The position numbers and the translations under genes were made by a program. Shown piece by piece: positions 1,477 through 46,425 of a stretch of DNA of 64,000 nt. Each line of letters starts with the position of its first letter. The first letter of the stretch is position 1. The stretch comes from Halorarum halobium (lineage in GTDB: Archaea > Halobacteriota > Halobacteria > Halobacteriales > Haloferacaceae). The stretch is from positions 496,001-560,000 of the forward strand of contig NZ_CP134949.1 in the NCBI RefSeq assembly GCF_032116555.1. The letters run 5' to 3'. Below the pieces are notes generated by a model, which was not told where the DNA came from, made no database searches, and saw nothing but the letters and a program-made list of their open reading frames with translations.

Positions 1477-1820
1477 CGGCGCGCGTGACGGCGAGCCCCG
1501 AAGTGGGCGAGCAGACGCGCGCGAGGGACGAGCACCGCAGGCGAACGAGCGAAGCGAGTGAGACGAGGAGCGCAGGAGGCTGGGGAGGGTGAGGCGCGGG
1601 GCGGTCGCGGTGGGTGGGACTGAAAGGGGCCGGCTGGGTACGCGAACCCCGGACCCGGTGAGGCGAGCAAAGCGAGGCGAACCTCGGAAGTCGCAGCCGA
1701 CGAACGTCGCGAGGAGGACCGTCTTCCGTAGCAAGCACCGCAGGCGAGCGTAGCGAGCCGAGGAGCACAGCGCGGTCCGCGGGAGCGTAGCCAGCCGGGG
1801 GCTTTCGAGGCGGTCGTCAC
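1477..1820 (+). repeat. Modular intergenic palindromic repeat, copy R1 (full-length type)
   Basis: Colinear with reverse complement of 46163-46425; core GGGTGGGACTGAAAGGGGCCG at 1612-1632; terminal GGGGGCTTTCGAGGCGGTC. Confidence 0.9.
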
Positions 1821-1980
1821 TATCCACCGGCCCACGCCGGACGTGACACATCAGGAGCCGAGAACGGCGAGGGATTCCGTGTCCACTGCCACGATATCCC
1901 TTCGACCTGCGTTCGACCCACACAGTTGCCCACGTTCGAGGACCGGTCCGGCTAAGTCCCCGGATGCCCCACACCCGCGC

Positions 1981-3048
1981 ATGCACTACCGCGAACTGGG
2001 CGACTCCGGCGTCGAGGTGAGCGAGGTCGCCTTCGGCGCGTGGGTCGTGGGGACCGACTGGTGGGGCGACCGGAGCGACGCGGACGCCGTCGAGATGGTC
2101 GAGTACGCGCTGGAGAACGACGTCACGTTCTTCGACACCGGCGACGTGTACGGCCACGGCCGCTCGGAGGAACTCGTCGGCGAGGCGCTCTCGGAGCACC
2201 GCGACGAGGTCACGGTCGGCACGAAGGTCGGCTACGACTTCTACGACAACCCGCAGGCGGGCCACGGCGAACTCCCGAAGGAGCTGACCCCCGAGTACGT
2301 CCGTGAGGCCGTCGAGAACTCGCTCGACCGGCTCGACATGGAGTACGTCGACGTGCTGTTCCTCCACAACGCGAACGTCGACGAGGTGACCGACGAGCTG
2401 CTGGAGACGCTGTACGACCTCCGCGGGGAGGGGGTCGTCGACGCGCTCGGCTGGGCGCTCGGCCCCTCAATCGGCTGGCTGGCCGAGGGCGACCGCGCCG
2501 CGGAACTAGACTTCGACGCGATCCAGACCGTCTACAACCTGTTCGAGCAGACGCCCGGCAACCACTTCGTCGAGAGCATCCGCGAGGAGAACGCCGACAC
2601 GAGCATCGTCGCCCGCGTCCCGCACTCCTCGGGCCTGCTGAACGAGCAGGTCACGCCCGACACCGAACTCGGCGAGGGCGACCACCGCGCCTACCGACCC
2701 GACGACTGGTTCGAGACCGGCTGGGAGAAGCTGGATGAGATTAGGTTCCTCGAACGCGACGGCGCGCGGACGATGAGCCAGGCGGCCATCCAGTGGCTGC
2801 TCGCCCACGACGAGGTCGCCGCGGTGACGCCGACGTTCCGCTCCCGGGAGGACATCGACGAGTGGGCCGCCGCCTCCGAGACGCCCCCGCTCTCCGAGGA
2901 GGAGTTCGAACGCGTCGCCGACCTGTCCGCCCGGAACTTCGGCATCGACCGGAGCGACGGCATGGACGCCGAGGAGTTCCGCACCTCCGTCGGCGGCGAG
3001 GACCTCCGGGACGCGGGCGTCATCCCCGCGAACTCCGCCGAGAACTGA
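1981..3048 (+). CDS. Aldo/keto reductase
   Basis: MHYRELGDSGVEVSEVAFGAW, FFDTGDVYGHGRSEE, SLDRLDMEYVDVLFLH motifs. Confidence 0.92.
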   Translation: MHYRELGDSGVEVSEVAFGAWVVGTDWWGDRSDADAVEMVEYALENDVTFFDTGDVYGHGRSEELVGEALSEHRDEVTVGTKVGYDFYDNPQAGHGELPKELTPEYVREAVENSLDRLDMEYVDVLFLHNANVDEVTDELLETLYDLRGEGVVDALGWALGPSIGWLAEGDRAAELDFDAIQTVYNLFEQTPGNHFVESIREENADTSIVARVPHSSGLLNEQVTPDTELGEGDHRAYRPDDWFETGWEKLDEIRFLERDGARTMSQAAIQWLLAHDEVAAVTPTFRSREDIDEWAAASETPPLSEEEFERVADLSARNFGIDRSDGMDAEEFRTSVGGEDLRDAGVIPANSAEN

Positions 3049-3257
3049 TGGGAGGCGGCGCGCGACCGTCGGGGCGCGCCCCCGGACGGCGGGGAAGCCG
3101 CGGGCGAATCGCGGCGGCGACGCTCGTCGTACACGCGGGACTCGCAGCCGCCGTCGCGCTGGACGCGCGTGGAACCGATCGTGACGCCGGCCGCTGGGGG
3201 CTGGTGACGCTCGCGACCGGAGTCTTCGGCGCCCTCGCGTACGTTCTCACGCGCTGA
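3048..3257 (+). CDS. Small membrane protein
   Basis: ATG overlaps upstream TGA (TGATG); two hydrophobic stretches flanking DARG, ending GALAYVLTR. Confidence 0.55.
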   Translation: MGGGARPSGRAPGRRGSRGRIAAATLVVHAGLAAAVALDARGTDRDAGRWGLVTLATGVFGALAYVLTR

Positions 3258-3290
3258 CCGCGATTCTCTCCCCGTATCGGCTCCCCGGGG

Positions 3291-4862
3291 TCACTCCGCG
3301 TTCGTCCTGACCTCGAAGCGGGCCCCGCCCCCGTCGCTCTCGACGAGCGCCACGTCCCAGCCGTGGGCGTGTGCGATCTCCCGGACGATCGACAGCCCGA
3401 AGCCCGTCCCGTCCTCCGCGGTGGTGAAGCCGCGCTCGAACACCTCCTCGCGGTCCCCCGGCGGGATTCCCACCCCGTCGTCGGCGACGAAGAACCCCTC
3501 GGCTGCCGGGAGGGTATCGACCGTGACGGCGACGTCCTCGCCGGCGTGCTCGGTCGCGTTCCGGAACAGGTTCTCGAACAGCTCCCGAAGCCGTGAGGGG
3601 TCGGCGCTCACGCTCCCGAGTTCCGGGCTCACCGAGAGGTCGCCGCCGGGGACGGTCCCCCACACCTCTCGGGCGAGGGGCGCGAGCGCGACCGGCTCGA
3701 TATCGCCGAGGTCCCGGCCGGTCCGCGCCAGCGAGAGCAGGTCCTCGATGAGCGCCTCCATCCTGCCGTGTGCCTCCGCGATGCGGGCGTGGTGCTCGCT
3801 GTCCCCCTCGTCGGCCGCGAGTTCGAGCCGGCCCTGTGCGACGTTGAGCGGGTTCCGGAGGTCGTGGCTCACGACCGAGGCGAACTCCTCCAGCCGGTCG
3901 TTCTGTCGGGCCAGTTCCCGCTCGCGGTGGCGGAGCATCACCTCCCGCTCGGCCCGGTCGAGCGCCGCCTCGACGTTGTCGGCGAACACCCGTGCGAGAC
4001 CCAGATCCGACTCATCGAAGGCGTTCGTCTCGTCGGAGCCGGCCATGAACACGCCGTGCTCGCCGAGCGGGAGGACGACCTCGCTCCGGACCTTCGTGTC
4101 GGGGTTCTGGACGCGCTCGGATTCGCGCACGTCGCCGTGGAGGACGGCTTCGCCGGACTCGAACGCCTCCCAGCCCACGCTGCCGTCCTCCAGATCGGGG
4201 ATGTCGCCGAACATCGCTCTCGCCTCCTCGGTGACGCTCACCGGGACGAGCCGGGTCCCGTCCGAGGAGAGCAGGTGGATCGAGTTGACGCGGAGCCCGA
4301 GGATCTCGTGGGCCGCGTTCGTCGCGGAGGCGGCGACTGCGGCGGTGTCCCGGGCGGTCATCAGCTCTCGGGCCGCCTTGTGGAGCCGGTCGAGGCGGCG
4401 TTCGCGGTCGAGCCGGTCGAGCGCGACCCCCATGTTCTCGGCGAGCAGGTGGACGAGTTCGACGTTCGTCTCGTCTGCGTCCCGCTGGTCGGCCGCGCCC
4501 GCGACGAGGACGCCGTGGGAGCCGATGGGGACCACGACCCCGGCCTCGATCACCGAATCGCGGACCCGGTCGAACGTGACCGGCTCGCTCCCCTCGAAGA
4601 CGGACCAGACCGCGTCGCCACGCCGGTACACGGGGACCTCGTCGTAGCGCTCGCGGATCGCCTCGCTCGTCGCGATCGGTTCGAGGTGCCCGCTCGATTC
4701 GAGGAGGTAGACGCCGACGAACGGGAGCCCGAGGATGTCCTCGGCCGTCTCGACGGCCACGGCACAGAGCGACTCGCGGTCGGCGGCCGTCAGCAGATCC
4801 CGCGTCGCCGCGTAGAGCGCCCGCACGCGCTCGGTTCCCCCCTGGGGGTCGCGGGGATTCAT
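3291..4862 (-). CDS. GAF-GAF sensor histidine kinase
   Basis: FASVVSHDLRNPLNVA H-box, ENLFRNA N-box, DDGVGIP and GTGFGLSIV G-boxes; two GAF-like repeats. Confidence 0.9.
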   Translation of the reverse strand: MNPRDPQGGTERVRALYAATRDLLTAADRESLCAVAVETAEDILGLPFVGVYLLESSGHLEPIATSEAIRERYDEVPVYRRGDAVWSVFEGSEPVTFDRVRDSVIEAGVVVPIGSHGVLVAGAADQRDADETNVELVHLLAENMGVALDRLDRERRLDRLHKAARELMTARDTAAVAASATNAAHEILGLRVNSIHLLSSDGTRLVPVSVTEEARAMFGDIPDLEDGSVGWEAFESGEAVLHGDVRESERVQNPDTKVRSEVVLPLGEHGVFMAGSDETNAFDESDLGLARVFADNVEAALDRAEREVMLRHRERELARQNDRLEEFASVVSHDLRNPLNVAQGRLELAADEGDSEHHARIAEAHGRMEALIEDLLSLARTGRDLGDIEPVALAPLAREVWGTVPGGDLSVSPELGSVSADPSRLRELFENLFRNATEHAGEDVAVTVDTLPAAEGFFVADDGVGIPPGDREEVFERGFTTAEDGTGFGLSIVREIAHAHGWDVALVESDGGGARFEVRTNAE

Positions 4863-4981
4863 TACTGCTGGGGTATCGGAGGGGTCCTGATAAATCCCGC
4901 ACCTTCCGTGCGAGTGGTTCCCGAACGCGCGTGGATCGCCCGAACACGCGTGGGTCGCCCGGACGCTCGTGAACCCGCCGG

Positions 4982-6586
4982 TCAGGCCAGGAACACGTGC
5001 CGCGGCCGGTCGGCCAGGACGTCCCGGCCCCACGAGACGGTGTCCCGGAACGCGTCCGAGCGGAAGAACGCCATCGCGTCCTCCTTCGAGGCCCACTGGC
5101 TGGCGATGAACATGTCGTTCTCGTCCTCGCGGTTCACCATCAGGTCCGTCTCGTGGTGGCCCTCCATGTCGGCGAGCAGGTCGCCGACCGTCCCGAACTT
5201 CCCGACGAAGTCGTCGGTGTGTTCGGGCTTGACGGTGTAGAACATCCCCATGGTGCCGAACCCGGACTCCTCGCCGGCGCGCGCGACGATGCCGGGGAGC
5301 TCCGAGAGGAAGCCCGCCGCCGTCTCGGCCGCGCTGGCCGTCTCCCAGATGGAGACCACCGCCTCGCGGTCGGTCTCGGTGCCCGAGTAGACGGCCGTCT
5401 TCACGTGGGTGCCGTAGTGGTCGAAGTTGCCGCGCAGCCCCTCGACCTCCTCGAACAGTTCGTCCGGGTCGGCCTCGGAGTAGAGCACGGTGGCGAACAC
5501 GTCCTCGCCGTGGGGTTTGCCGGCGTAGATGTCGAGGTCCCCCAGTTCGGCGCGGATCGACGCCTCGTCGTCCGCCTCCGCCCCGTCGCCGTCGCGCTCG
5601 TCGCTCTCGCCGCCGTCGCGTCCGTGGTGGCCGCCCTCCGCGTGCGGATGGTCGCCGTCGCCGCTGTGGCCGTCGCCGTGAGGGTGGTCCCCGTGCGCGG
5701 ACTGGCCGTGCGGGCGGCCGCTGGTGGCACCTGCCTCGCCGGCAGCGTGCGGGTGGCCGCCGTGGTGCCCCTCGCCGTGCGGGCCCCCGGACTCGCCGTG
5801 GTCGCTCGTCGGCACCGGGTCGCCGGCGAGGTACGCGCCGAGATCGCTCGGCGGGAACCGGCGACCGACGTAGAACTGCCCGAACTCGCCGTAGCGCGAG
5901 GACGCCTCGTCGAAGCGCATCTCGTAGACGATGTCCTTGATGTCGGTCGGGTCCGACGCGAACAGGGTGACGCCCCACTCGTGGTCGTCGAACCCCACGG
6001 AGGAGGCGATGACCTGCTTGATCTTCCCGGCGTACTCCCGGCCCACGTCGCCGTGGCCCGACATCAACTCGGCGCGCTCGTCGAAGCTCAGGTCGTACCA
6101 GTTGTCCCGTTCGCCCCGGCGCTTGCTCATCGGGTAGAAGGAGACGTACTCGCCCTGGGGGATGTCCGGCTTCAGTTTCCCCTCGATGTAGCGGCGGAGC
6201 CCCTCGTCGATCTCGTCCTCGTCGCCCTCGAAGTAGTCGTCCGAGACGTATCCGGACACCTCGGTGACGGAGACGTAGGAGGTCGGCTGGCTCGTGAACG
6301 ACGCGAGCGCGGTGGATTCGAACCGGCGTTCGGCCGTCGAGAGCGCGTCCATCGTCGGCCGGAAGTGGACGACGAGCAGGTCGGCCTTGTGCCCGAGGAC
6401 GGAGAACACCGCCGAGGCACCTTCCTCGGCGTCGGCGACGTCCTCGTGGCGCTGCAGGTAGTCGGTCCCCTCGGCGATCGCCTGTCGACGGTCGCGCTCG
6501 GGGGCGTCACGCCAGCCGTCCCAGTCCACCTGCCGGAAGTCGTGGAGCACGTACCACCCTTCGTCGGTCCGCGGGGCTTCGGTCAT
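4982..6586 (-). CDS. pitA: PitA: chlorite dismutase/coproheme decarboxylase-like domain fused to ABM monooxygenase domain
   Basis: EGWYVLHDF, YPMSKRR...NWY, GFDDHEWGVTLF, MRFDEASSRYGEFG; His-rich linker; C-terminal ABM domain. Confidence 0.88.
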   Translation of the reverse strand: MTEAPRTDEGWYVLHDFRQVDWDGWRDAPERDRRQAIAEGTDYLQRHEDVADAEEGASAVFSVLGHKADLLVVHFRPTMDALSTAERRFESTALASFTSQPTSYVSVTEVSGYVSDDYFEGDEDEIDEGLRRYIEGKLKPDIPQGEYVSFYPMSKRRGERDNWYDLSFDERAELMSGHGDVGREYAGKIKQVIASSVGFDDHEWGVTLFASDPTDIKDIVYEMRFDEASSRYGEFGQFYVGRRFPPSDLGAYLAGDPVPTSDHGESGGPHGEGHHGGHPHAAGEAGATSGRPHGQSAHGDHPHGDGHSGDGDHPHAEGGHHGRDGGESDERDGDGAEADDEASIRAELGDLDIYAGKPHGEDVFATVLYSEADPDELFEEVEGLRGNFDHYGTHVKTAVYSGTETDREAVVSIWETASAAETAAGFLSELPGIVARAGEESGFGTMGMFYTVKPEHTDDFVGKFGTVGDLLADMEGHHETDLMVNREDENDMFIASQWASKEDAMAFFRSDAFRDTVSWGRDVLADRPRHVFLA

Positions 6587-6700
6587 GCTCGGGGGTTGGC
6601 ACGCGGGGGGTTTGCCTGTTTTCCTTCGATTCTTTTGGAAAGTGCGGTGTCGGCTGGGGATGACTCGGGTGGTGTTTCGGGTCTCAGGGGTTCGCTGGTG

Positions 6701-6929
6701 ATGACCGCGAAAGCCCCCGCGGCTCTCGGCTCCCGGGCCTCGCTGCGGTCCTCAGTCGCTCGCTCCGCTCGCGCCCGCCGCGGTGCTCGTCCATCAGATG
6801 CGGTCGGCGCGTGCCGGCGGGCCTCCGTGCCCGCCGGGTGCGCGCGAGGGGTGAGCATCGCAGCGAGCTTGCGAGCGAGAAGCGCAACGGCTGGGGAGGG
6901 CGAGGCCGTAATCACCGCCAGCAGTAGTG
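6701..6929. repeat. Modular intergenic repeat, copy R2 (composite, head-to-head modules)
   Basis: Begins CGAAAGCCCCCGCGG; 6800-6929 is a near reverse complement of 31170-31280. Confidence 0.85.
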
Positions 6930-7006
6930 ATCCAGTTGTTCGTCCAGTAGACTAGCGACGCACTCGCCTTCGAACCACCGCGATTCCGCTACCCGTTCAA
7001 ATCGGA

Positions 7007-7543
7007 CTAGTTCTCCTCGATGGCGTCGATCACCACCGCAGCGATGACCACCAGCCGCGGATCGATATCGCCCGACACCGACACCGTGTAGCGGTCCCGG
7101 AACGAGAACGCGCCCTCGATCCGCCCGACCTCGCTCCCGTCATCGGCCTCCACGACGTAGGCGAACGGCAGCAGCGTCGTCACCATCCGGCGGACGAACG
7201 CGCGCAGCCAGTTGTCCTCCTTCACCGTCGCCACGACGTCGCCGTCGGGACCGAGCAACTGGTACTCGTGTTTCAGCAGCGACTTCAGGCTCCGCTTGAC
7301 CGACCCGACGCGCTCGCCCGTCCGCGAGTCCTCGATGTCGTAGGCGGCCGACGTGTCGAGCACGCTGTCAGCTTTCACTCGGAACAGTTCCTCGCCGCCG
7401 TCGGCGTCGGTAAAGCGGAAGTCCTCCTTCAGCTTCAGCTTCTTCTGCTTGGACGCGAGGATCTCCCGACCCTCCTCGGAGACGACGTACGCGTTGCCGA
7501 TGGCGATCTTCTGCTGGATCTCGTAGCGGGAACCGTCGAACAT
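7007..7543 (-). CDS. LURP-one/scramblase-like (Tubby C-terminal-like) protein
   Basis: YEIQQKIAIGNAY, KQKKLKLKEDFRF, DPRLVVIAAVVIDAIE. Confidence 0.7.
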   Translation of the reverse strand: MFDGSRYEIQQKIAIGNAYVVSEEGREILASKQKKLKLKEDFRFTDADGGEELFRVKADSVLDTSAAYDIEDSRTGERVGSVKRSLKSLLKHEYQLLGPDGDVVATVKEDNWLRAFVRRMVTTLLPFAYVVEADDGSEVGRIEGAFSFRDRYTVSVSGDIDPRLVVIAAVVIDAIEEN

Positions 7544-10121: not shown

Positions 10122-10270
10122 TGCCCGTGAGTTCCCGAGTTCGGAGGGTAAGGGTTTCGGTCCCTACAACGCCGTTTACTGGCCGGTCAGTTCGTCGGGT
10201 GGGATCTCGGTCGGTTCGTGGTTCGGGCAGCGTCCCGGTCCGTGGCTCGGACGGGAGGGCCGACGAATGG

Positions 10271-10451
10271 ACCACTGCTGCTGGCGGTGAGTACGGGCCA
10301 CAGCCTCCCGTCCCTCGGAGCGAACGTTTCGGAACTCGCTCTCGCTCCGCTCACGTGAACAGCCGCTTGCGGCCCTCGCGGGGCTCGCGAGCTCGCTGTA
10401 CATCTCACCTCTCGCGCGCGAGCCCCGCGAGGGGCGAGCGTCACGCGCGCC
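10271..10451 (-). repeat. Modular intergenic repeat, copy R3 (diverged)
   Basis: Starts ACCACTGCTGCTGGCGGTGA (cf. 31168); middle resembles 33825-33876; ends GTCACGCGCGCC (cf. 46413). Confidence 0.7.
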
Positions 10452-15172: not shown

Positions 15173-15436
15173 ATGGCGAGCGCGACGCGCAACGGAGATG
15201 ACCCGGACGGTGGTGTCGAGTTCATCCGAGAGGACGACGGGAGTATCACCGCGCGGGACCTCGAAACCGGCCTCGCACGCGGCGGCGACTCGCGGGCCGA
15301 GGCGCTCGCACAGTTGGCCGAAATCCTCGCACTCGAAGCGGGCGAGGGCGAACCAGTGACTGACGACGATATCCGGGAGATGGGGTTCGACCCGGACGCT
15401 GGCGACGACGAGGAACTGCCCGAGTTCATGCGGTAG
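15173..15436 (+). CDS. hicB: HicB-family antitoxin
   Basis: EDDGSITARDLETGLARGGDSRAEALAQLAE fold signature; abuts hicA. Confidence 0.8.
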   Translation: MASATRNGDDPDGGVEFIREDDGSITARDLETGLARGGDSRAEALAQLAEILALEAGEGEPVTDDDIREMGFDPDAGDDEELPEFMR

Positions 15437-15682
15437 ATGGTCAGGTACACCTTTTCCGGTCGGGAAATCATCTCCGTCCTCCGAAGCTTCGGCTACGTGC
15501 CGAAATCGCGGCGTGGGAGTCACGTTCGCCTTCGGTACGAGAACCCGGACACGGGTGAGATTCGCAACGTCGACGTCCCGATGCACGACGAGATAAAAAT
15601 CGGGACGCTCCGGTCCATCGCAGACCAGTGTGGAGCCGACGACTTCGAGGTCTAGTGTCGGTGGATCGACGAACACGCGTAG
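15437..15682 (+). pseudogene. hicA: HicA-family toxin with premature TAG at 15653-15655 (72 aa instead of about 81)
   Basis: FSGREIISVL...RRGSHVRL...VPMHDEIKIGTLRSI; frame continues CRWIDEHA* after the TAG. Confidence 0.7.
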
Positions 15683-15785
15683 GGTTCTCGGTGGAGTTAA
15701 TCGCGGGAGAACGGCGGACAGCTCGGCGACAGCTCCATCCCGTGCAGTTCGAATTGGGACCACGTTTGGCACCGGAACCGGGCAG

Positions 15786-15920
15786 ACTGCGAGGAACTTG
15801 ACCCACGCCGAGACGGTCACTCCCTTCGGTCGCGCTGCGACTCGTCTCCTTCGAATCCCTCTCGCAATCACGATTCGCCGGACTCGGCTCCTCGCTCCGC
15901 TCGTCGCGGTGAGTCCGGCA
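15786..15920 (-). repeat. tRNA 3'-associated structured repeat, R4
   Basis: Stem 15877-15885/15911-15919, two GNA mini-hairpins, inverted T-arm copy and degenerate direct copy of tRNA 3' end. Confidence 0.7.
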
Positions 15921-15927
15921 GAACTAG

Positions 15928-16000
15928 CGGGCGGCGAGGGATTCGAACCCCCGACCTTTTGGTTCGGAACCAAACGTTCTATCCACTGAACTAGCCGCCC
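15928..16000 (-). tRNA. tRNA-Arg (anticodon CCG), no encoded CCA
   Basis: GGGCGGC/GCCGCCC acceptor stem, TTTGG-TTCCGAA-CCAAA anticodon arm, GGTTCGAATCC T-loop; 73 nt. Confidence 0.97.
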
Positions 16001-17768: not shown

Positions 17769-18112
17769 CGCGGAAGCCCCCGCGTTTCTCGGCTCGCGCG
17801 CCACGCGCTGGGCTCCTCGCGCTCGCTCCGCTCGCGCTGTGGTGCTTACGGTGTCGTGCTTCCCCGAGAAACGCGGCCCCTTCCATTTCCGCCCGTCGGT
17901 AATTCGGTCGAGCGACGCTCCGCTGGCTGACCGATGTGTGCCGTCGGTCGGTCAGCCGGCATCGGCGCGCGGCGGCCGCGCTCCGCGCGGCCGCTCGTGC
18001 GAGGCTCAAGCGAGCGCAGCGAGGGTGAGTTCCGAGGAGCGTGCTCCGAGGTAAAGACGAGGTCCCGACCGAAGGGAGGGGCATCGCCGGTTGGGGAGGG
18101 CGAGGCTGCGGT
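17769..18112. repeat. Modular intergenic repeat, copy R5 (two modules in opposite orientation)
   Basis: CGGAAGCCCCCGCG end; perfect stem 17780-17792/17864-17876; variant core at 17874-17894; GNA hairpins at 17822, 18011, 18066. Confidence 0.85.
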
Positions 18113-26170: not shown

Positions 26171-26734
26171 CTATCCGTCCCCACGGGGAGTTCCCAACCA
26201 CGCCGTCATCTCCAGTTCGAACGACTCGGCGTCGCTCGTCTCGAAGCCGACCTTCTCGTACAGCGAGACGGCCGGACGGTTCCAGCGCTCGACGGTGAGC
26301 CACACCCGCTCGACGCCGTTTTCGGCGCCGTGGCCGAGCAGCCCCTCGATGAGTCTGGTGCCGATGCCCGCGCCCTGATACGCCTGGAGGACGAAGATCG
26401 CCAGTTCGTACACTTCGTCGTCGTCAGGGACGAGCGTGGCGTGGCCGGCCGCCCGGTCGCCGTCCCAGGCGATGACGTTGAACCCGCCGCCGCCGAGGAT
26501 GCTGTCGAGCCAGTCGCGGATCGCCGACTCCCGGCTCGGCGGGATGCCCTGCGCGCGGTCGGCCGGGTCGAACGCGTCGTACATCTCGACGAGCGCCGCG
26601 AGTTCCTCCTCGCTGCGGTCGGCGTCGGCGTGGAACGGCCGGACCTCGATCTCGCGCCCCTCGCCGTCCGAGAACGAGAACGGCGGTTCGGCGAACGGGC
26701 CCGCCGGCTCGTCGGGGTAGGTTCGGTCGCTCAT
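26171..26734 (-). CDS. GNAT acetyltransferase
   Basis: IFVLQAYQGAGIGTRL, NRPAVSLYEKVGF. Confidence 0.9.
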   Translation of the reverse strand: MSDRTYPDEPAGPFAEPPFSFSDGEGREIEVRPFHADADRSEEELAALVEMYDAFDPADRAQGIPPSRESAIRDWLDSILGGGGFNVIAWDGDRAAGHATLVPDDDEVYELAIFVLQAYQGAGIGTRLIEGLLGHGAENGVERVWLTVERWNRPAVSLYEKVGFETSDAESFELEMTAWLGTPRGDG

Positions 26735-27099
26735 CGGACGAGGGTCACCGAAACGTGGGAGTTCAGGAGCACGAACTGTGCGATCTGGCCGAGGTTGATC
26801 TTCCCCATCGGGCTGGTCTGTCCGCCGCCGAGCGCGATGTGGTCGAACCCCTCCGACTCGGCGATGTCCACCAGCCGGCTCCCCGCGTCGCCCTCGACGC
26901 GCCGCACCGTGGCGTCGAGGTCCGCATCGCCGAGGAGGTCCCGGACGCGCGATTCGACGTCCGCCAGCGAGGCGTCCGACTCGGGGTTCTCCACGACCGC
27001 CACGGTGAGGTCGTCGCCCGCCTCCCGCGTGCGCTCGACGGTCCGTTCGAGCGCCGTGAGCGAGTCGCCGCTCCCGCCGATTCCGAGGAGCACCTTCAT
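26731..27099 (-). CDS. Universal stress protein
   Basis: MKVLLGIGGS, LGQIAQFVLLNSHVSVTLVR; overlaps GNAT start by 4 nt. Confidence 0.88.
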   Translation of the reverse strand: MKVLLGIGGSGDSLTALERTVERTREAGDDLTVAVVENPESDASLADVESRVRDLLGDADLDATVRRVEGDAGSRLVDIAESEGFDHIALGGGQTSPMGKINLGQIAQFVLLNSHVSVTLVR

Positions 27100-28133: not shown

Positions 28134-28204
28134 ACTGCTTTCCTGGCGACTGAACGGGGCTATTTTCCGCGGGATCCGAGTGTGCTGCTCGACGTGCGCC
28201 TGCG

Positions 28205-28300
28205 ATGACCGCCTCGAAAGCCCCCGCGGCGCTCGACTCCCCCGCACCACGCGGTTGGTCGAGCAGATGCGGTCGGTGCGGGCCGTTCACGCGAGCGAAC
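28205..28300 (-). repeat. Truncated repeat copy R6
   Basis: ATGACCGCCTCGAAAGCCCCCGCGGCGCTCG and CAGATGCGGTCGG shared with R2, R7 and R10. Confidence 0.75.
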
Positions 28301-31043: not shown

Positions 31044-31167
31044 GCTGGGGGCATTTCGGTCCGTGGTTGTCAATTTCGGGGTTGGTTCGTTCACCGACTC
31101 CGGTTTTCTCCGTTTAGACGGTTACTACCTGGTTCGATCTCTCAGGCCGGTTGGTCGGTGAGGTAGA

Positions 31168-31540
31168 CCACTACTGTTGGCGGTGATTGTAGCCACGGCC
31201 TCCCCAGCCGATTGCGATGCTCGCTCGCAGGCTCGCTGCGCTTCTCATCCCTCGCGCGCATCCGGCGCGGACGGAGCCGCGCCGGCACGCGCCGACCGCG
31301 GCCAACTCGACCAGGCCACGTGGTGCGCGGCGGCCGCCCCTCGTGGGCGACCGCTCGTGCGAGGGACGAGCACCGCAGGCCGAAGCTCTCGTGAGCGACG
31401 CAGGAGCGAACGAGAGCACGCGGGTCGAGCGAAGCGAGTCCCGCGAAGGCCGAGAAGCGCAGGAGGCTGGCGAGAGTGAGGTGCGGTGCCGTGCGGTGGG
31501 TGGGACTGAAAGGGGCCGCGGGGGCTTTCGAGGCGGTCAC
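31168..31540. repeat. Modular intergenic repeat, copy R7 (composite)
   Basis: Left part reverse-complements R2; core at 31498-31518 joined directly to terminal GGGGGCTTTCGAGGCGGTC. Confidence 0.9.
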
Positions 31541-33709: not shown

Positions 33710-33819
33710 ACGGTGCTGGTTCGCCGTCGGCGCCCTCGTCGTCGGGCACGGTACGTCCCTCTATCGGCTGATCGGTGACGCGGATCGCTGCTTCCGGCGG
33801 TGATCGGGCCACAGTGTCG

Positions 33820-33892
33820 TTTCGCTCGGAGCACCCTCCTCGGAACTCACCCTCGCCACGCTCGCGTGAGCAGCCTCCTGTGCTCCTCGCGG
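33820..33892 (-). repeat. Repeat fragment R8
   Basis: Reverse complement matches 18011-18049 (GCGAGGGTGAGTTCCGAGGAG.GTGCTCCGAG); CAGCCTCCTGTGCTCCTCG identical to 46321-46339. Confidence 0.8.
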
Positions 33893-34002
33893 GCGTCGAC
33901 TCAACCCCATCAGGAGGGACGGGTCACGCGCGCAAAACGCCAAACAGCGCCGACCGCAGGAAATGCCCCGCGTGACCCGACCGTTCGGTCAACGCGAGAA
34001 CC

Positions 34003-36431: not shown

Positions 36432-36539
36432 TGCAACGGCGTTGCCGCGATTCGCTCTTAAGGCTCCCGGACTGGTCGTTCCGCGGGTCGCGCTGGCGGG
36501 GACGTCCTTCCCGGTTTCGAACGACCAAACGACCGGATG

Positions 36540-36762
36540 GCGCGCGGCGGCCGCCCCTCGTGGGCGGCCGACTCGCGCGAGGGATAGAGTGAGGGGAGCG
36601 ACCGAAGGGAGCGCCGAGCGAATCGGCTGGGGAGGCGTGTGGCCGTGCCGTGCGGAGCGGGTGCGGTGGGTGGGACTGAAAGGGGCCGCGGGGGCTTTCG
36701 ATGGGCCGAAGCGACGACCGAACCAACGCTCGAACCGAGAGCAGCCGGGGCTTTCGAGGCAG
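36540..36762 (+). repeat. Modular intergenic repeat, copy R9
   Basis: GCGCGGCGGCCGCCCCTCGTGGGCG shared with R7; core at 36668-36688; two GGGGCTTTCG termini. Confidence 0.88.
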
Positions 36763-38345: not shown

Positions 38346-39482
38346 ATGAGCGAAGCGGTCCCGGGGGACGTCCCCCGGCCCCCGGAACTGAACGCCGTCT
38401 TCCACCTCTCCGAGGTGCGGACCGACGGCGAGCGCGTCCTCTACTACGGCGTCAGCGACGTGGGCGAGGACGCGCTCGTCGAACGGATCTGGCCGGCGTT
38501 CCGCGAGCGAGGGTACGAGGTCCAGGTCGTCCAGACGGACCGCGGACTCGACGTCGTCGTCGCCCGGCCCTACTCGACCGGCGTCGACGGGGTCCCGTGG
38601 ACCAACGTCGTCCTGTTCTGTGCGACCCTGCTCTCGACCCTGCTCGTGGGCGCGACCGCGTGGTACTACATCCCCTTCTCGGCGATCCGCGAGAACCCGC
38701 TCGTCGCGCTCCAGGCGTGGCCGTTCACCGCGGCGGTGCTCGGGGTGCTGTTGACCCACGAACTCGGCCACTACGTCATGGGCCGGTACCACGACGTGGA
38801 CGTGTCGCTCCCGTACGTCATCCCCTTCATCCTCCCGTTCGGGACGATGGGCGCGATCATCCGGATGCGCGGGCAGATGCCCGACCGGAAGGCGCTGTTC
38901 GACATCGGCGTCGCGGGGCCGCTCGCGGGGCTCGGGGCGACGGTCGTCGTCACGGTCGTCGGCCTCCTGCTCGGCCCGTTCCAGGTCCCGGCTGAAATCG
39001 TCCAGCAGGGCGGGCGCGTCATCGTGTTCAACAACCCGCCGTTGCTCGATCTCATCGCGGGCGCGATCGGCCAGCCGACCGGCTACGCCGACCCGAGCCG
39101 GACGGCCCACCCGGTGATCATGGGCGCCTGGGTCGGGATGTTCTTCACCGTGTTGAACCTCCTCCCGGTCGGTCAGCTCGACGGCGGACACGTCGTCCGC
39201 GCGATGGTGGGCGAGCGCCAGGAGACGGTCGCCTCGCTCGTCCCCCTCGCCCTGTTCGGCGTCTCGGCGTACCTCTACTACGTCCGCGACCTCGGGCTCA
39301 ACGAGTCGGTCGGCCTCTGGGCGTTCTGGGGGCTCTTCTCCGCGTTCATCGCCTACCGCGGCCCGGCGAACCCCATCGACGACTCGTCGCTCGACGGGAA
39401 ACGGATGGCCGTCGGCGTGGTGACGTTCGCGCTCGGCCTGCTGTGTTTCATGCTGGTTCCGATCCGCGTCGTGACGCTGTGA
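38346..39482 (+). CDS. Site-2 protease (M50)
   Basis: HELGH, GVAGPLAG, NLLPVGQLDGGH. Confidence 0.92.
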   Translation: MSEAVPGDVPRPPELNAVFHLSEVRTDGERVLYYGVSDVGEDALVERIWPAFRERGYEVQVVQTDRGLDVVVARPYSTGVDGVPWTNVVLFCATLLSTLLVGATAWYYIPFSAIRENPLVALQAWPFTAAVLGVLLTHELGHYVMGRYHDVDVSLPYVIPFILPFGTMGAIIRMRGQMPDRKALFDIGVAGPLAGLGATVVVTVVGLLLGPFQVPAEIVQQGGRVIVFNNPPLLDLIAGAIGQPTGYADPSRTAHPVIMGAWVGMFFTVLNLLPVGQLDGGHVVRAMVGERQETVASLVPLALFGVSAYLYYVRDLGLNESVGLWAFWGLFSAFIAYRGPANPIDDSSLDGKRMAVGVVTFALGLLCFMLVPIRVVTL

Positions 39483-39514
39483 TCGGGCCGCCAGCCGCCC
39501 CGGCCGACCTCCGT

Positions 39515-39639
39515 ACTGATCCATTCCGGACCTGACTCGTCCCGGACTGATCCATTCCGGACCTGACTCGTCCCGGACTGATCCATTCCGGACCTGACTC
39601 GTCCCGGACTGATCCGTCCCGGACCCGACCCGTCCCGAC
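39515..39639. repeat. 31-bp tandem repeat, 3 exact + 1 degenerate units
   Basis: ACTGATCCATTCCGGACCTGACTCGTCCCGG at 39515, 39546, 39577; decayed unit at 39608. Confidence 0.95.
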
Positions 39640-41672: not shown

Positions 41673-41762
41673 GCAGTACCGATGGAACCGCCGGACGACG
41701 GTCGTTGCTGGCCGGCCGGTACGGGCCGTGTGGCCGACCACGAGCGGCGGAGATACGACGAG

Positions 41763-41768
41763 TTTAAA
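41763..41768 (+). promoter_or_regulatory. TATA box of rps19e
   Basis: TTTAAA 25-30 nt upstream of ATG 41793. Confidence 0.65.
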
Positions 41769-41792
41769 CGGCGGGACACTGAATTCGGCCGT

Positions 41793-42248: not shown

Positions 42249-42511
42249 CGTTTCCCCTGTTGTGGCGTGTGGTTTTCGAACGTGATCGGTGAGCGACCGG
42301 TATCGTTTCCAGTTGCTAGCGGGGTCGGTGGCCGTGTGTCCGGCTGGGGCAGCAATCGTCGGGGAGTCTCCTGATCGGTGACCTCGAGCGCCGCGGGGGC
42401 GCTCCGGAACTGCGTCAGACCGACCGACTCGACGACCGAGTCGGCCACCGCCGTTCCCCACTCCGTCGGTTACGTACCGACCTCGGGGACGGATCCGGCC
42501 GAATCGATCAC

Positions 42512-43330: not shown

Positions 43331-43444
43331 GGTCGTCCCGGCCGGACCTACCGGGCCGACGGTCAAAAGCGGTCCCTGAACCTCGTTCCTGTAACGGGGC
43401 TGATCCGTCCGCGGAATCGGCGGACGTGACTCACTCCAGCGTGC

Positions 43445-44038
43445 TCACTCCAGGGTGCCGCGGACGTACGTCTGCTCGTGAGCCGGGAACACCTCGGCGA
43501 CGGCGTCGTCGCCGCCGTCCGCCCGGAGGAGTTCGCGGAGTTCGCCCTCGTAGTCCGACTTGGGGATCTCCTCGCTCGGGCCCGATTCGACCTCGAGCGT
43601 CTCCCCGACCAGCCGGTCGACCGCGTTGCGGCCGAACCCGGAGAGCGGGGCGATGTAGTCGACGCCGTGTCGGTCCTCCAGCGACTGGGCGAACGCCCGC
43701 GAGACGGAGGGGACGCGGTCGTCACGCCGTGTGCCGTCGGCGACGGCGTCGACGTCGAGCGCGGCGACCTCCTCCATGGCGTGCTCGTGGACCTGCTGGA
43801 TGCCGTTTCGGGGGTAGCCGTCCTCGCGCATCGTCTCGACTGCCTCCGCGGCGACCTCGGGGTCGAGTTCGTGCGTCTCGAACGGGAAGCCGAGCGCCGC
43901 GGCCGCCTGGCGCGCGTGCTCGTGGTCGTCGGTGACGTCGAAGTGGGCCGTGACGAGCCGGACGTCGTAGAAGCCGTCGAGGACGAGCGCCGCGAGCGAG
44001 GAGTCCTTCCCGCCGCTGTAGAGGAGCGCGAGTTCCAT
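43445..44038 (-). CDS. Conserved archaeal PP-loop (adenine nucleotide alpha hydrolase) protein
   Basis: LYSGGKDSSL, ADGTRRDDRVP, SDYEGELR. Confidence 0.85.
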   Translation of the reverse strand: MELALLYSGGKDSSLAALVLDGFYDVRLVTAHFDVTDDHEHARQAAAALGFPFETHELDPEVAAEAVETMREDGYPRNGIQQVHEHAMEEVAALDVDAVADGTRRDDRVPSVSRAFAQSLEDRHGVDYIAPLSGFGRNAVDRLVGETLEVESGPSEEIPKSDYEGELRELLRADGGDDAVAEVFPAHEQTYVRGTLE

Positions 44039-44389
44039 TCAGCGGCGGCGGATGTCGAAGCTCTTCTGCTCGGGCTGGAGTTCGCGCAGCAGCGACTTCA
44101 TCTGCTCCTCGTCGATGCGGTCCTGGATGCGCCCGCTCTTGGCCAGCGCCGTGACCTGCTGTTTCACCTGCTTGGCGAAGTCGGGCTTGCTCATCTCGAC
44201 GGCGTTGAGCCGCTGGCGCGCGCCGTCGGTGAGGTACTGTTTGAGCAGCGCGTCCTGCTGTTGCTGGGCGCGCTCCTGGGCGGCCTGCTGGGCCTCCTGG
44301 TCGCCTTCGCCGCCGGCCTGTTCCTGAAGCTCCTGCATCTTCTGCTCCCGGAGCTCCTCCAGTCGCTCGTCGTCGGGGGTTTCGCTCAT
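44039..44389 (-). CDS. PDCD5-family DNA-binding protein
   Basis: [33 protein letters not shown]. Confidence 0.92.
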
Positions 44390-44739
44390 GCTGGGTGTGC
44401 GTTACTGTGGCGCGGCCAAAACGATTGCGGGTGAGGCGTGGATGGTGTGGGGAGAGTTGGTACGCGGGCGGTCACCGTCGCTTCTGCTCCGTCGGCTCAT
44501 TCTCCTCGATGCAGTTCCGGAAACTCCCGGCCACTCTTGGCTCCCGGTGTGCGGTCTTCGGTCCTGGCTTGGTCGTCGTGGCGGTCGAAACGACGACCAA
44601 ACAACCGCAGAAGCCGACAGCCACGGGAGTCCGCGAGGCGACTCACGTCGTAACATCGCGACCGACCGAACCCACCGACTCCGAAGGAAGAAACGGAAGA
44701 ACCACGACCTTAAACCACGTCACGCGAATACTCCGACCC

Positions 44740-46056
44740 ATGCCCACCTACGAGCGCCTGAAGGGGTTCCGCGACTTCTACGCCCCCGAGATGGCCGCGC
44801 GCCGCGAGGTCATCGACACGATCGAGGACGTCGCGCGGCGCTACGGCTTCCGGGAGATCGACACGCCGCGGCTCGAACGCGCCGAGATGTGGACCGACAA
44901 GAGCGGCGACGACATCGTCGACGAACTGTACGCGTTCGAGGACCACGGCGGCCGCCACGTCACGCTCGCCCCGGAACTGACGCCGACCGTCGCGCGGATG
45001 TACGCCGCGAAGGCCCAGGAGCTGTCCAAGCCCGTCAAGTGGGTATCGACCCGGCCGTTCTGGCGCTACGAGCAGGTCCAGCAGGGCCGCTTCCGCGAGT
45101 TCCACCAGACGAACGTCGACGTCTTCGGCTCCGCGGAACCCGAGGCCGACGCCGAGGTGCTCGCCGTCGCGGCCGACGCGCTCACCGGCCTCGGCCTGAC
45201 GCCCGAGGACTTCGAGTTCCGCGTCTCCCACCGCGACATCCTCGGGAGCCTCCTGCGCTCGTTCGACGCCCAGGTCGACGTGACCGCCGCCATCCGCGCG
45301 GTGGACAAGTCCGAGAAGGTCGACGAGGACGAGTATCTCGGCCTGCTGTACGACGCCGGCCTGTCGTACGACCAGGCGCGCGAGTTCGACTCGCTGCTCG
45401 ACGTCCGCGACCCGGCGACCCTCGACGAACTCACCGAGTTCGCGCCCGACGCCGAGGGGCTCGCGGACGCGGTCGAGAACCTCCGTGCGGTGCTCGCTGC
45501 CGCCGAGGACTTCGGCGTCGGCGAGCACTGCGACCTCTCGCTCCGGACCGCGCGGGGGCTGGACTACTACACCGGCGCCGTCTTCGAGTGCTTCGACTCG
45601 ACGGGCGAGGTGTCCCGCTCGGTGTTCGGCGGCGGGCGCTACGACGACCTCATCGAGGAGTTCGGCGGCCAGCCCACCCCCGCGGTCGGCGTCGCGCCGG
45701 GCCACGCCCCGCTCGCCCTGCTGCTCGAACGCGCCGGCGTCCTCCCCGACGCGGAGCTCTCGACCGACTACTACGTGCTCGGGGTCGGGGACACCCGCGA
45801 CGTGGCGGCGCGGGTCGCACGGGACCTCCGCGCGGGCGGCAACGTCGTCGAGTCGGACGTCGCCGGTCGGAGCTTCGGCGCGCAGATGGGCTACGCGGAC
45901 TCGGTGAACGCCGAGACGGTCGTCATCGTCGGCGAGCAGGACCTGGCAGACGGGAACGTGACGGTCAAGGACATGGGGTCGGGCGAGCAGACGACCGCGC
46001 CGGTCGAGGAGTTCCCCGGCGGACTGGAGCGGCCGACGTACGACGACTTCGCGTGA
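44740..46056 (+). CDS. hisS: Histidine--tRNA ligase
   Basis: KGFRDF, PELTPT, WRYEQVQQGRFREFHQ, RGLDYYTG, GGGRYD. Confidence 0.97.
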   Translation: MPTYERLKGFRDFYAPEMAARREVIDTIEDVARRYGFREIDTPRLERAEMWTDKSGDDIVDELYAFEDHGGRHVTLAPELTPTVARMYAAKAQELSKPVKWVSTRPFWRYEQVQQGRFREFHQTNVDVFGSAEPEADAEVLAVAADALTGLGLTPEDFEFRVSHRDILGSLLRSFDAQVDVTAAIRAVDKSEKVDEDEYLGLLYDAGLSYDQAREFDSLLDVRDPATLDELTEFAPDAEGLADAVENLRAVLAAAEDFGVGEHCDLSLRTARGLDYYTGAVFECFDSTGEVSRSVFGGGRYDDLIEEFGGQPTPAVGVAPGHAPLALLLERAGVLPDAELSTDYYVLGVGDTRDVAARVARDLRAGGNVVESDVAGRSFGAQMGYADSVNAETVVIVGEQDLADGNVTVKDMGSGEQTTAPVEEFPGGLERPTYDDFA

Positions 46057-46162
46057 TTAGTCAGGTTTGGGGGGCTATGGGTTGTTGCAGCCTTCGTTGA
46101 GTCGTTCTCGAACGGCCCCAAGGCGCTTGGCTTCGGTGCAGGTCCGGTAGTCGTGGCGCACC

Positions 46163-46425
46163 CCTCGAAAGGCCCCCGCGGCGCTCGGCTCCCACGAACC
46201 GCGCTGCGCTCCTCGTCACTCGCGTTGCTCGCTCCTGTGGTGCTTGCGGGTTCGGGGTTCGCCGAGAGCCGCGGCCCCTTTCAGTCCCACCCTCCGCACG
46301 GCACCGCACCTCACCCTCCCCAGCCTCCTGTGCTCCTCGGTTCACTCGCTTCGCTCGTTCACCTGCGGTGCTCGTCCCTCGCGCGCGTCGCCTCGCCCCT
46401 TGGGGGCTCGCCGTCACGCGCGCCG
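46163..46425 (-). repeat. Modular intergenic repeat, copy R10 (full-length type)
   Basis: Reverse complement colinear with R1; core at 46272-46292. Confidence 0.9.

Follow-up and report, generated by a model that had tools for sequence, protein, structure and literature searches.

The short hairpin motif that recurs in the 64,000-nucleotide stretch analysed here (the window) belongs to a family of modular intergenic repeats, of which about 130 clusters, making up about 30 kb, were found in the host genome (G000, 99.9% complete). In the preferred reading, which is given a probability of about 0.5, these are gene-less haloarchaeal repeats that fold as single-stranded DNA, carry the motif as a cap, and are kept by cutting near the end of one of their parts (the R unit) and recopying. 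No description of this family was found in the literature searched. The modules follow the order L1, L2, tip and M2, followed by R1, tip and R2 or by Z, and head-to-head pairs are common. The L unit, the R unit, nested cassettes and modules behind nine tRNA genes are the modular parts.

In the window, CGAGCGNAGCGAG was present in eight exact copies, while 0.10 were expected and 100 dinucleotide shuffles gave one at most. The sequence-only reading had reported these copies with all four bases at the variable position N, and each coordinate, strand and N was confirmed exactly. The same holds for the compensated stem variant CGACCGAAGGGAG at 15820(-), 18066(+) and 36599(+), and for the copies with other loops, CGAGCAAAGCGAG at 1664(+), CGAGCGTGGCGAG at 33852(-) and CGAGCAACGCGAG at 46219(-), all three intergenic. 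Two uncompensated matches to the general pattern, at 26609(-) and 27365(+), had been overlooked; both lie within coding DNA by our own gene calls and look like chance matches. The genome-wide comparison of intergenic and coding DNA proposed at the time revealed an intergenic excess, with 111 intergenic and 7 coding sites for the GC/GC stem, 51 and 1 for CC/GG, 22 and 1 for AC/GT, and 4 and 4 for GT/AC, a split that is approximate as it depends on our own codon-model gene calls. Intergenic sites with mismatched stems numbered 0 (GC/GG), 0 (CC/GC), 3 (AC/GC) and 2 (GC/GT). The stem was paired in 275 of 1027 intergenic GA-XY-GNA-ZW-GA sites, against a mean of 103 (maximum 136) after shuffling, and in 200 of 1940 sites in the coding control. 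The earlier claim that a fold is under selection is thus supported by covariation of the 2-bp stem across the genome (GC/GC, CC/GG, AC/GT).

The modules can be followed along the window. The first L unit (1478..1588, +) consists of hairpin H1 (1478-1526), a GA-zipper hairpin (H2) with the tip CGAGCGAAGCGAG (1546-1558), and a G-rich end, M2 (1578-1588). It precedes an R unit (1612..1807, +) with the tag GGGTGGGACT, the base GAAAG-GGG, a rod tip at 1745-1757 and the end R2 (GGGGGCTTTC); a 74-nt nested insert (1658-1731) within this unit contains the 1664 variant. Behind R2 runs a tail (1808..1870, +, outer limit approximate), which is A-rich and G-poor at each third base throughout the family. 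A partial R rod (6708..6800, -; tip 6759-6771) stands head to head with an L unit (6806..6932, +) that has a non-GNA tip, M2 and a Z tail; the congener G002 holds an element with other modules at this site. A degenerate L unit (10270..10451, -) shows a tip variant at 10341-10353 and a Z tail. The tRNA-Arg(CCG) gene (15927..16000, -) is trailed by a module (15784..15926, -) with hairpin A (tip 15891-15903), hairpin B (tip 15820-15832), an inverted copy of the T arm (15850-15864) and a decayed direct copy of the tRNA 3' end (15784-15802). An R unit with the compensated base GGAAG/CTTCC (17770..17895, -; tip 17822-17834) is placed head to head with an L unit (17964..18099, +) carrying the tips 18011-18023 (GC/GC) and 18066-18078 (CC/GG) and an X hairpin. 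A remnant at 28204..28290 (-) comprises an R2 end and part of a rod arm, without tip. Another L unit with Z tail (31166..31293, -) is head to head with 31322..31530 (+), where an L unit (tip 31426-31438) is followed by a minimal R unit (31498-31530) without insert or tip. A degenerate L/X/Z element with the 33852 variant occupies 33790..33950 (-, limits approximate). The element at 36539..36756 (+) joins an L unit with a CC/GG tip (36599-36611) to a minimal R unit (36668-36700) and a second R2 (36746-36756, +) 56-57 nt downstream. Finally, a complete L+R element lies at 46166..46424 (-), with its tip at 46345-46357, the R tag at 46275-46292 and a rod with the 46219 variant.

The R unit is composed of a GGG-N-GGG tag and a rod of about 115 nt with a 13-bp stem. 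In 44 rods with 36 distinct arm pairs (two of 46 rods were left out for a register shift), the stem was 94% Watson-Crick paired, against 64% (maximum 74%) with shuffled partners. The base was GAAAG/CTTTC in 36 of the 46 rods, GGAAG/CTTCC in 8 and mixed in 2. In other genera, 874 of 924 stem cells were paired and G.T outnumbered A.C (27 vs 5) in 77 arm pairs, which had been preselected for 7 of 12 pairs. Of 84 rods anchored independently of the tag, 76 retained it, and tag and base recur in many genera and families; all such element counts overstate, because kin and paralogues are not independent. The rod tips were of the GA-GNA-GA type in 47 of 84 rods, other GNA loops in 8 and something else in 15, while 14 had no insert. 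Being replaceable, the tip is likely a stabilising cap and not a specificity element; the part read by a protein would be the invariant tag and base, GGG-N-GGG-ACT-GAAAG-GGG ... GGG-CTTTC. The 13-mer had been proposed as an element of its own, which is not supported since it caps hairpins within larger repeats. Its proposed role as recognition element for an ssDNA-processing enzyme is not supported as stated; no enzyme gene was found linked to it. The sole direct sign of a molecular machine reading the tip is the insertion of nested cassettes at one bond within it (see below).

By its sequence, the tip is predicted to stack a C-G pair, two sheared G.A pairs and a G-C pair into a CGAG block, with a GNA triloop on top. 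It shows the C-GNA-G loop, the free N, the paired 2-bp stem and the YGAR context in both arms that characterise DNA GNA mini-hairpins, and the outer C-G pair was present in 192 of the 275 paired sites. In the passages available from the structural studies (PMC13037366, PMC10085684), exactly this combination of one CGAG block and a GNA triloop is found, and the GC-GC and CC-GG pairs accepted there are the two commonest tip stems here; AC/GT stems and long rods are outside the coverage of these passages. The frequency of N at the tip across the genome (A110 > G78 > C69 > T18) follows the Tm order given for d(GCGNAGC) (PMC13037366, passages available). C-GNA-G triloops reached 1.89 per kb in elements and 0.34 in other spacers. 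Stem mismatches of the R rods, read on the motif strand, were G.T in 13 cases vs A.C in 2, and purine-purine in 12 vs pyrimidine-pyrimidine in 0. It is therefore likely that the repeats fold on the purine-rich strand as single-stranded DNA. Of the earlier proposal of ssDNA rather than RNA, the single folding strand and the DNA-type loops stood; the preference for DNA is indirect, and energy models choose the same strand for both. Under a standard DNA model, which lacks sheared pairs, the element 1478-1815 folded no better than its shuffles (z +0.97), and 46160-46425 gave z -2.58.

It is improbable that the repeats act as a structured RNA, whether one that stabilises mRNA, a small RNA or a tRNA-linked RNA of the kind suggested for E. 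coli RtT. RNA parameters also fold the motif strand better in 40 of 46 rods, and tandem G.A pairs occur in RNA too. Modules were found behind 9 of 53 tRNA calls, sometimes in tandem copies (L034), and are likely transcribed because they lie on the sense strand of the tRNA genes. RtT, the E. coli tRNA-linked repeat (Rfam RF00391), likewise follows a number of tRNA genes and repeats the 3' end of the tRNA it adjoins; the haloarchaeal arms differ from it by DNA-type GNA tips common to the L/R family, and an Rfam search gave no match. Against RNA, GNRA loops are flat (0.49 per kb in elements, 0.47 in other spacers) with one cUNCGg, G.T makes up only 13 of 468 R-stem cells, and r(GCGAAAGC) is listed with a Tm of 39 C against 76.5 C for its DNA counterpart (PMC13037366, passages available). 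The orientation check suggested earlier gave no bias relative to transcription or chromosome region: 37 elements had the orientation of their flanking genes and 33 the opposite one, and the element strand was that of the upstream gene in 58 of 133 cases.

The missing regional strand bias also bears on the idea of a domesticated DNA signal, selected locus by locus, whose folded strand would load a host primase, restart or nucleoid protein in the manner of the ColE1 primosome assembly site. The likeness to that site is one of sequence: CGAGCGTAGCGAG occurs once in ColE1, at 1331, in a CCGCAG...CGAGG context resembling H2. This match presumably falls in the ssiA/pas region. The passages available from PMC3167613 name ssiA and give no coordinates. 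GNA mini-hairpins are described in RSF1010 ssiA, the G4 origin and N4 promoters (PMC13037366, passages available), the tip was present in 150 of 151 genomes of the class (the control for that count is itself inflated), and rods stay paired at old sites where MITE ends and target duplications have decayed. Such a signal is nevertheless rather unlikely: R1 copy number ranges from 0 to 59 per genome and is patchy among relatives, the R1 base is missing at 42 of the 125 R2 ends in intergenic DNA, rods were lost at orthologous sites (see below), and the elements are almost absent from the two small replicons of the host and are parasitised by cassettes.

These S cassettes (n=31; 14 of 111-116 bp and 17 half forms of 55-64 bp) all lie within host elements. 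They enter at the bond CG^C, after CG in 31/31 and without duplication; 9/31 went into the tip itself, and 2/31 had mosaic flanks. The cassette core was also detected in G008, G010, G003, G029 and G046. By description, the cassette resembles the SMR-A repeats that invade the PATEs of Haloquadratum walsbyi: both are of about 110 bp, have inverted termini, produce no TSD and enter palindromes of other repeats (PMC3119063, passages available). According to the same passages, PATEs are gene-less haloarchaeal repeats without TIRs and TSDs; the layout in G000 is likewise free of both, with near-terminal palindromes. The elements might thus be heterogeneous PATEs, i.e. IS200/IS605 ends moved in trans by TnpA via an ssDNA intermediate. 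The same tip type caps a CCCC...GGGG hairpin directly upstream of tnpA at 2 of 30 tnpA loci (L076, L087), and it also caps four related palindromes in G008. The chance of this is nonetheless small, as neither the L nor the R unit could be connected with IS605 ends or with TnpA: L/R modules were not found at the ends of the 30 tnpA loci (R1 in one, 1.4 kb away), element motifs are absent at the single tnpB gene that G000 has, TnpA was not found in most of the high-copy genomes, and G008, rich in tnpA relics, has no R1. No clearly fixed target tetramer or sharp 3' end was seen in the G000 elements, where a weak TCAC lies 9-13 nt behind R2; the TCAC was not seen in other genera.

In other genomes, 15 of 118 R loci held the rod within 17-bp terminal repeats at fixed offsets, with a target duplication matching 6-8 of 8 in 4 of these 15, and in G003 an IS6 transposase gene is bounded by the same ends. 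The IS6-family MITE is a carrier in some lineages and not the repeat family itself, because G000 lacks both its ends (IS6-type TIRs with 8-bp TSD in 0/61 elements) and an IS6 transposase gene. Profile searches detected no Y1 transposase (PF01797, HUH/RAYT type) in G000; it was also not detected in 7 of the 9 genomes that have at least 7 R1 copies, three of which are only 61-83% complete. DUF123 was missing from G000, G002, G017 and G060. A small GIY-YIG gene occurs just once in 57 of 61 genomes, and at 2 of 30 of its loci element modules lay no more than 1.5 kb away; among profile-detectable families, no small or single-domain GIY-YIG gene flanked by repeats was found. No nuclease recurred among 453 + 138 neighbour genes of elements. 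A diversity-generating retroelement was ruled against, with no reverse transcriptase gene (RVT_1) found in G000 and mismatches spread 61/56/73 over the triplet positions.

Turnover was followed at orthologous sites. Three of four G000 element sites hold an element with other modules in G002, and 16 of 16 empty spacers were also empty. Nine spacers with R in G001/G002 correspond in G000 to an element in five cases, an R2+tail remnant in three and nothing in one, the base rate being 127/2988. Rods were 90-95% alike at loci whose tails show near-background identity. Tandem duplications start at R2 in 51 of 331 ends, with lengths in multiples of three in 43 of 51 (13 of 19 distinct lengths). The allelic pair L349/L366 differs by a 48-nt unit, partly an exact and partly a mutated flank copy, and the L001 pair is identical over 150 bp, 74% over the next 55 and then about 85-97%. 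The tail is non-coding, 3-periodic and A-rich, with a period phased to R2 (control flat) and a keto skew of -0.23 (controls -0.05/0.00); among the 24 changes in second R2 copies, 11 are G>A. Hypermutation of the tail is not a general feature, as L132/L310 (genes 87-92%) kept the tail at 94-96%; the divergence of L161/L305 fits neutral decay. Synteny was broken at 17 of the 33 spacers that hold an element and at 14 of 81 others; when the comparison is made with spacers of at least 200 nt, the excess falls to p=0.07.

A tentative mechanism for the preferred reading is a break at the R2/tail junction followed by recombinational recopying. A putative nuclease would nick or break the junction, and the resected end would invade another copy or the sister chromosome via the host recombinase. 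In-register invasion would swap the rod; out-of-register invasion would duplicate R2 and tail, and the 3-periodicity of the tail would set the step of three. On the exposed strand, C-to-T changes would build up, read as the A-rich tail. Against the preferred reading, the duplicated spacers of G000 resembled their own second copy no better than they resembled others. Alternatively, and with low probability, no dedicated enzyme is needed: in old insertions, arms would be matched by template switching, gene conversion would shuffle the modules and slippage would duplicate the tails. The haloarchaeal cell is polyploid, a setting for such conversion, and the searches yielded no enzyme. Where a duplicated unit ends, it is similar to the rod arm that precedes R2 (6.5 vs 4.9 of 14), as slippage requires, and inverted tRNA copies match their own tRNA best in 5 cases, tie in 3 and lose in 1 (n=9). 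Arm matching would, however, remove the purine-rich loops as well as the GGG/GGG loop, yet both are kept; slippage does not explain a 3-periodic tail phased to R2, and the shared tag and base across families and the single cassette bond also argue against this alternative.

It is doubtful, though worth stating, that the R unit acts in Halobacteria as a hot spot of recombination that renews itself. RadA-driven repair proceeds in base-triplet steps. The four invariant G-runs (GGG-N-GGG, GGGG, GGGGG) might form a potassium-stabilised ssDNA quadruplex with the covarying rod as third loop, as the pattern of the conserved tag and of G4-like sequences suggests (42 on one strand of the 91 elements and 0 on the other, in part because G makes up 44%). 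A putative nuclease or host repair enzyme would cut at the 3' end of the R unit, RadA repair would swap rods between loci and write the mutagenised 3-periodic tail, and the GNA/CGAG cap would be the handle by which an SMR-A-like parasite finds its target bond. If true, this would make the long-open mobilisation of SMR-A directly testable. In any case, the fixed insertion bond provides a defined substrate for that question, and the duplications that start at R2 in triplet phase leave a trace by which DNA repair and rearrangement in haloarchaea can be measured at these sites. The repeats adjoin core genes in many Halobacteria and, with their deep covariation, are a natural case of DNA folding by way of sheared G.A pairs and GNA loops.

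REP, BIME and REPIN repeats are mobilised by RAYT (Y1 HUH) transposases. As far as the passages available show (PMC3733652), REP repeats are GTAG- and CGTC-tagged, and the haloarchaeal family shares with them the extragenic, oriented arrangement of a conserved unpaired 5' tag and a hairpin, the grouping into head-to-head dimers with short spacers and into mosaic clusters, stems that covary among paralogues, and a patchy copy number. It differs by rods of about 115 nt where REP palindromes measure 20-40 nt, by the sheared-G.A loops and GNA tips of these rods, by the GGG-N-GGG tag, by its archaeal host, by the 3-periodic tail with R2-anchored duplications, and by the lack of a detected Y1 gene in the host and most high-copy relatives. 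With the Ssn SRM/NTS repeats, as described in the passages available from PMC11893778, it has in common a repeat of defined orientation whose hairpin adjoins a conserved 5' part that stays unpaired, a single active strand, a free loop sequence and many intergenic copies; there is no sequence likeness, no repeat-flanked small GIY-YIG gene was detected, and the word archaea does not occur in the main text as available. Since REP-like bacterial repeats led to both enzyme groups, an archaeal family without RAYT or Ssn points to another enzyme or host pathway. On the best reading, the family would be akin to REP/BIME or Ssn repeats, with breakage and gene conversion via a putative enzyme maintaining it, and the Ssn nucleases would be the best model for how such an enzyme reads R.

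The window covers positions 496001-560000 of the chromosome of Halorarum halobium, whose genome comprises 3.68 Mb in three contigs (99.9% complete); it has a base composition of 68% G+C and encodes acidic proteins. The mini-hairpin C-GA-SC-GNA-GS-GA-G, hereafter the tip, had been flagged in the window by the sequence-only reading, and this observation is real. The eight listed copies of CGAGCGNAGCGAG were all recovered in place, where 0.10 were expected, together with three copies carrying a CC/GG stem at 15820 (minus strand), 18066 (plus) and 36599 (plus) and three copies with other loops at 1664 (plus), 33852 (minus) and 46219 (minus). Genome-wide counting, with an intergenic/coding split that relies on our own codon model and is approximate, gave 111 intergenic against 7 coding occurrences of the exact motif, 51 against 1 for the CC/GG stem and 22 against 1 for an AC/GT stem; mixed, unpaired stems were almost absent from intergenic DNA. 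Stem compensation also holds genome-wide: the stem pairs in 275 out of 1027 intergenic GA-XY-GNA-ZW-GA sites, against 103 after shuffling (maximum 136). The outer pair is C-G in 192 of the pairing sites, and N is A in 110, G in 78, C in 69 and T in 18 of them. This is the order of the melting temperatures of d(GCGNAGC) in the available part of PMC13037366 (76 °C for A, 73 °C for G, 71 °C for C and 70 °C for T), which also names GC-GC and CC-GG as acceptable stems. CGAG opposite CGAG is the CGAG block defined by NMR, as given in the available part of PMC10085684. All but one of 151 genomes from the class Halobacteria contain the tip.

In H. halobium the motif forms the tip of longer hairpins within about 130 intergenic clusters, in which two modules were distinguished. 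The L unit (57 full copies) combines a GCGCGCG hairpin, a GA-zipper hairpin bearing the tip and a G-rich end. In the R unit, the tag GGG-N-GGG-ACT is followed by a base of GAAAG/CTTTC, then by a loop of GGG/GGG, a stem of 13 bp, loops rich in purines and the tip; R2 forms its end. Units also occur as head-to-head pairs with spacers of 15-30 nt. Only Halobacteria were found among the named records sharing the repeats.

Pairing of the R stem was analysed on 44 rods, the hairpin part of the R unit, after 2 of 46 had been dropped. They contain 36 distinct arm pairs, in which pairing reaches 94%, compared with 64% when the partners are shuffled, and the base covaries as GAAAG/CTTTC (36) or GGAAG/CTTCC (8). 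The covariation is that of one strand: G.T mismatches outnumber A.C ones (13 vs 2) and purine-purine mismatches pyrimidine-pyrimidine ones (12 vs 0), a bias indicating that the strand which folds is the purine-rich one. Both the pairing and the strand pattern were repeated in other genera. Among 84 rods anchored without the tag, G3-N-G3 is kept in 76 and the GA-GNA-GA tip in only 47, with no insert in 14; tipless R units lie in the window at 31498-31530 and 36668-36700. Tag and base are thus constant, and the tip is optional.

The sequence-only reading had favoured a fold in single-stranded DNA over one in RNA. In favour of DNA, perfect stems closed by C-GNA-G triloops show a 5.5-fold enrichment that GNRA tetraloops lack, the share of G.T in the R stem cells is 3%, orientation relative to genes is random, and Rfam returned tRNAs only, with no match to the repeats. 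Against it, predicted folding prefers the same strand under RNA (40 of 46 rods) and DNA parameters (36 of 46), and one whole element folds no better than its shuffles in the folding model. Judged from sequence, a fold as DNA is likelier than one as RNA. The check for orientation bias suggested along with it was negative: orientation is random along the chromosome as well as relative to genes, and runs tests for a replichore bias gave p 0.43-1.0.

Several elements of single-stranded DNA type share the tip, which is therefore best regarded as a recurrent building block. It stands close behind 9 of 53 tRNA calls in H. halobium, within modules in which hairpin A is followed by the tRNA 3' end in inverted copy, by hairpin B and by a direct copy; the window tips at 15891 and 15820 are part of such a module. 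The inverted copy matches its own tRNA best in 5 of 9 cases, ties in 3 and is worse in 1. The module behind tRNA-Gly(CCC) is present in the congener G002, and the site is empty in H. halobium. These modules resemble the RtT-type repeats of E. coli. Tandem arrays of such modules, with 100-200 nt per unit, were seen at loci L039 and L044 (genome G073) and L034 (G001) and at tRNA-Met and tRNA-Glu of H. halobium. Just past the tRNA-Arg module, at 15173-15655 (plus strand) of the window, a DUF7387 gene and a HicA-family gene likely form a HicBA toxin-antitoxin pair. In IS200/IS605 a GA-CC-GAA-GG-GA cap sits on the hairpin before tnpA in 2 of 30 tnpA loci, and genome G008 has 4 palindromes related to this hairpin. 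A single copy of the exact motif lies in ColE1, similarly framed by CCGCAG...CGAGG and roughly 140 nt beyond the origin region, a position which we take to be ssiA. Outside the L, R and tRNA modules, more tip-bearing repeats with other flanks (e.g. beside CTTTTGGTCGAGCTTTT) occur at 26555-26889 and 46472-46613 of the chromosome.

A further element, the S cassette (31 copies), is nested within host elements in every case. It has the ends TGGTTCGA...TCGAACGA, two or four GNA-capped hairpins and no target duplication. Insertion is after CG in 31/31 and before C in 30/31 copies; 9 of the 31 were inserted at one single bond of the tip, GNAG^CGAG, and 2 have mosaic flanks. The core was found in five other genomes, at two loci directly behind an apparent tnpB 3' end as judged by eye. 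One match in viral contigs was low in GC and irrelevant. Compared by description, the cassette agrees with SMR-A of Haloquadratum, whose mobilisation is called "enigmatic" in the available part of PMC3119063. At L037 and L422 (genome G046), small GNA-capped hairpins form long arrays on the two strands, apparently stacked S-type cassettes. A second nested type with the ends TTCACG...CGTGAA (24-52 bp, in some with CG on both sides) lies at 429777, 453122, 566043, 602606, 1227618, 2215065 and other places of the chromosome.

Comparison between genomes revealed stable sites with changing modules. Three of four element sites of H. halobium hold an element with different modules in G002, and all 16 empty spacers are empty there as well. 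Of 32 R sites of G001 and G002 checked against H. halobium, 5 had no orthologue pair and 18 were non-adjacent; the nine adjacent spacers held an element (5), only R2 and the tail behind it (3) or nothing (1). Synteny breaks affect 17/33 element spacers vs 14/81 others (p 4e-4), but the excess is weaker against long other spacers (8/29, p 0.07). The 20-mer of the R tag occurs in 22 of 61 genomes, with 1 to 59 copies each and patchily over families. Rods 90-95% alike occur at loci with unrelated tails. Among 118 foreign loci, 15 have the rod enclosed in an IS6-type MITE, the ends of which match those of a transposase-bearing element in genome G003 and are absent from H. halobium; the ends and the target duplications have for the most part decayed, while the enclosed rod is still paired. 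Loci L014 and L142 share flanking gene pairs across genera with chromosome positions 3317838 and 3151814, suggesting that some sites are old or refilled. At L001 (genome G020, 3890-7270), an R-bearing unit of ~330 bp is present in two direct copies, with a DUF7509 gene and two HTH-like genes between them; DUF7509 adjoins an R unit in L314 too.

Over roughly 150-180 nt behind R2 and Z, the tail module of the L unit, the DNA is rich in A and poor in G, with a keto skew of -0.23 against -0.05 and 0.00 in controls. At 21-36 nt, one base position in three, in register with R2, is low in G (0.11 vs 0.36 and 0.31); the null range is at most 0.06, the control is flat, and the signal fades by 66 nt. 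A protein-coding tail was rejected: pN/pS is 0.78 in the best frame (27 disjoint pairs), showing no coding constraint, stops are common to copies, stop depletion is present in another frame too, and rod length is not frame-preserving (98/91/71). The tails are not captured spacers, their genome matches being only short or paralogous, and the flanks are not inverted copies of each other. Tandem duplications anchored at R2 were found at 51 of 331 R ends. Their lengths are multiples of 3 in 43 of the 51, including all five near-exact ones, and in 13 of 19 distinct lengths, related copies being non-independent. One allelic pair differs by a 48-nt R2 unit, whose start is an exact and whose end is a mutated copy of the flank; another pair is identical over 150 bp and 74% alike directly behind R2; a third pair has no excess tail change. 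The duplicated spacers of H. halobium are not locus-specific.

The suggested ssDNA-processing enzyme was sought by family profiles and sampled loci, an approach blind to unprofiled or unlinked genes. Profile tests of Y1, IS6, RT and two GIY-YIG families (small GIY-YIG and DUF123) as helper were all negative, as were TnpB ends as source of the repeats. DUF123 and DpnII neighbours occurred once each and did not recur. An autonomous copy was found neither in 15 loci of low-copy relatives and among the H. halobium neighbours nor in 138 genome loci and 138 neighbour proteins of metagenome loci; phage records had no match and viral contigs 0 R-tag matches. An origin-recognition box was discarded, its inverted core being absent from the R tag; an ORB-like pattern matched 2 other places. 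The genome has no tnpA; its sole tnpB (L016, 487290-490490 of the chromosome) adjoins tRNA-Thr in a low-GC stretch ~6 kb before the window, and a CRISPR repeat occurs 93 times outside the window. Within it, an intergenic tandem repeat at 39480-39634 (31-nt unit, about four copies) is unrelated to the hairpin family, and two paralogous genes on opposite strands are 73-88% alike in the stretches 48755-48989/53523-53757 and 49757-49968/52523-52749.

With a probability of roughly 0.5, we consider the tip to cap hairpins of gene-less modular haloarchaeal repeats which fold as single-stranded DNA and are recopied between copies. Such recopying may draw on two known processes, gene conversion in polyploid cells and the stepping of RecA-family proteins in triplets. 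A break-and-copy mechanism can be drawn tentatively, its detail being rather doubtful: a cut at the R2/tail junction would be repaired from another copy, giving rod swaps and tail duplications, and the lower strand would be exposed to deamination. A protein may read the R tag and base, analogous to SsnA, which reads NTS according to the available part of PMC11893778.

The literature searched, with subscription journals thinly covered and the Haloquadratum PATE/SMR sequence lists outside the comparison, holds no account of the L/R family. Comparison of the ends excluded its assignment to PATE. Membership in REP/BIME and in the Ssn repeats failed because the required gene was not found (Y1 and the partner gene, respectively); in its way of working, the L/R family is like both.
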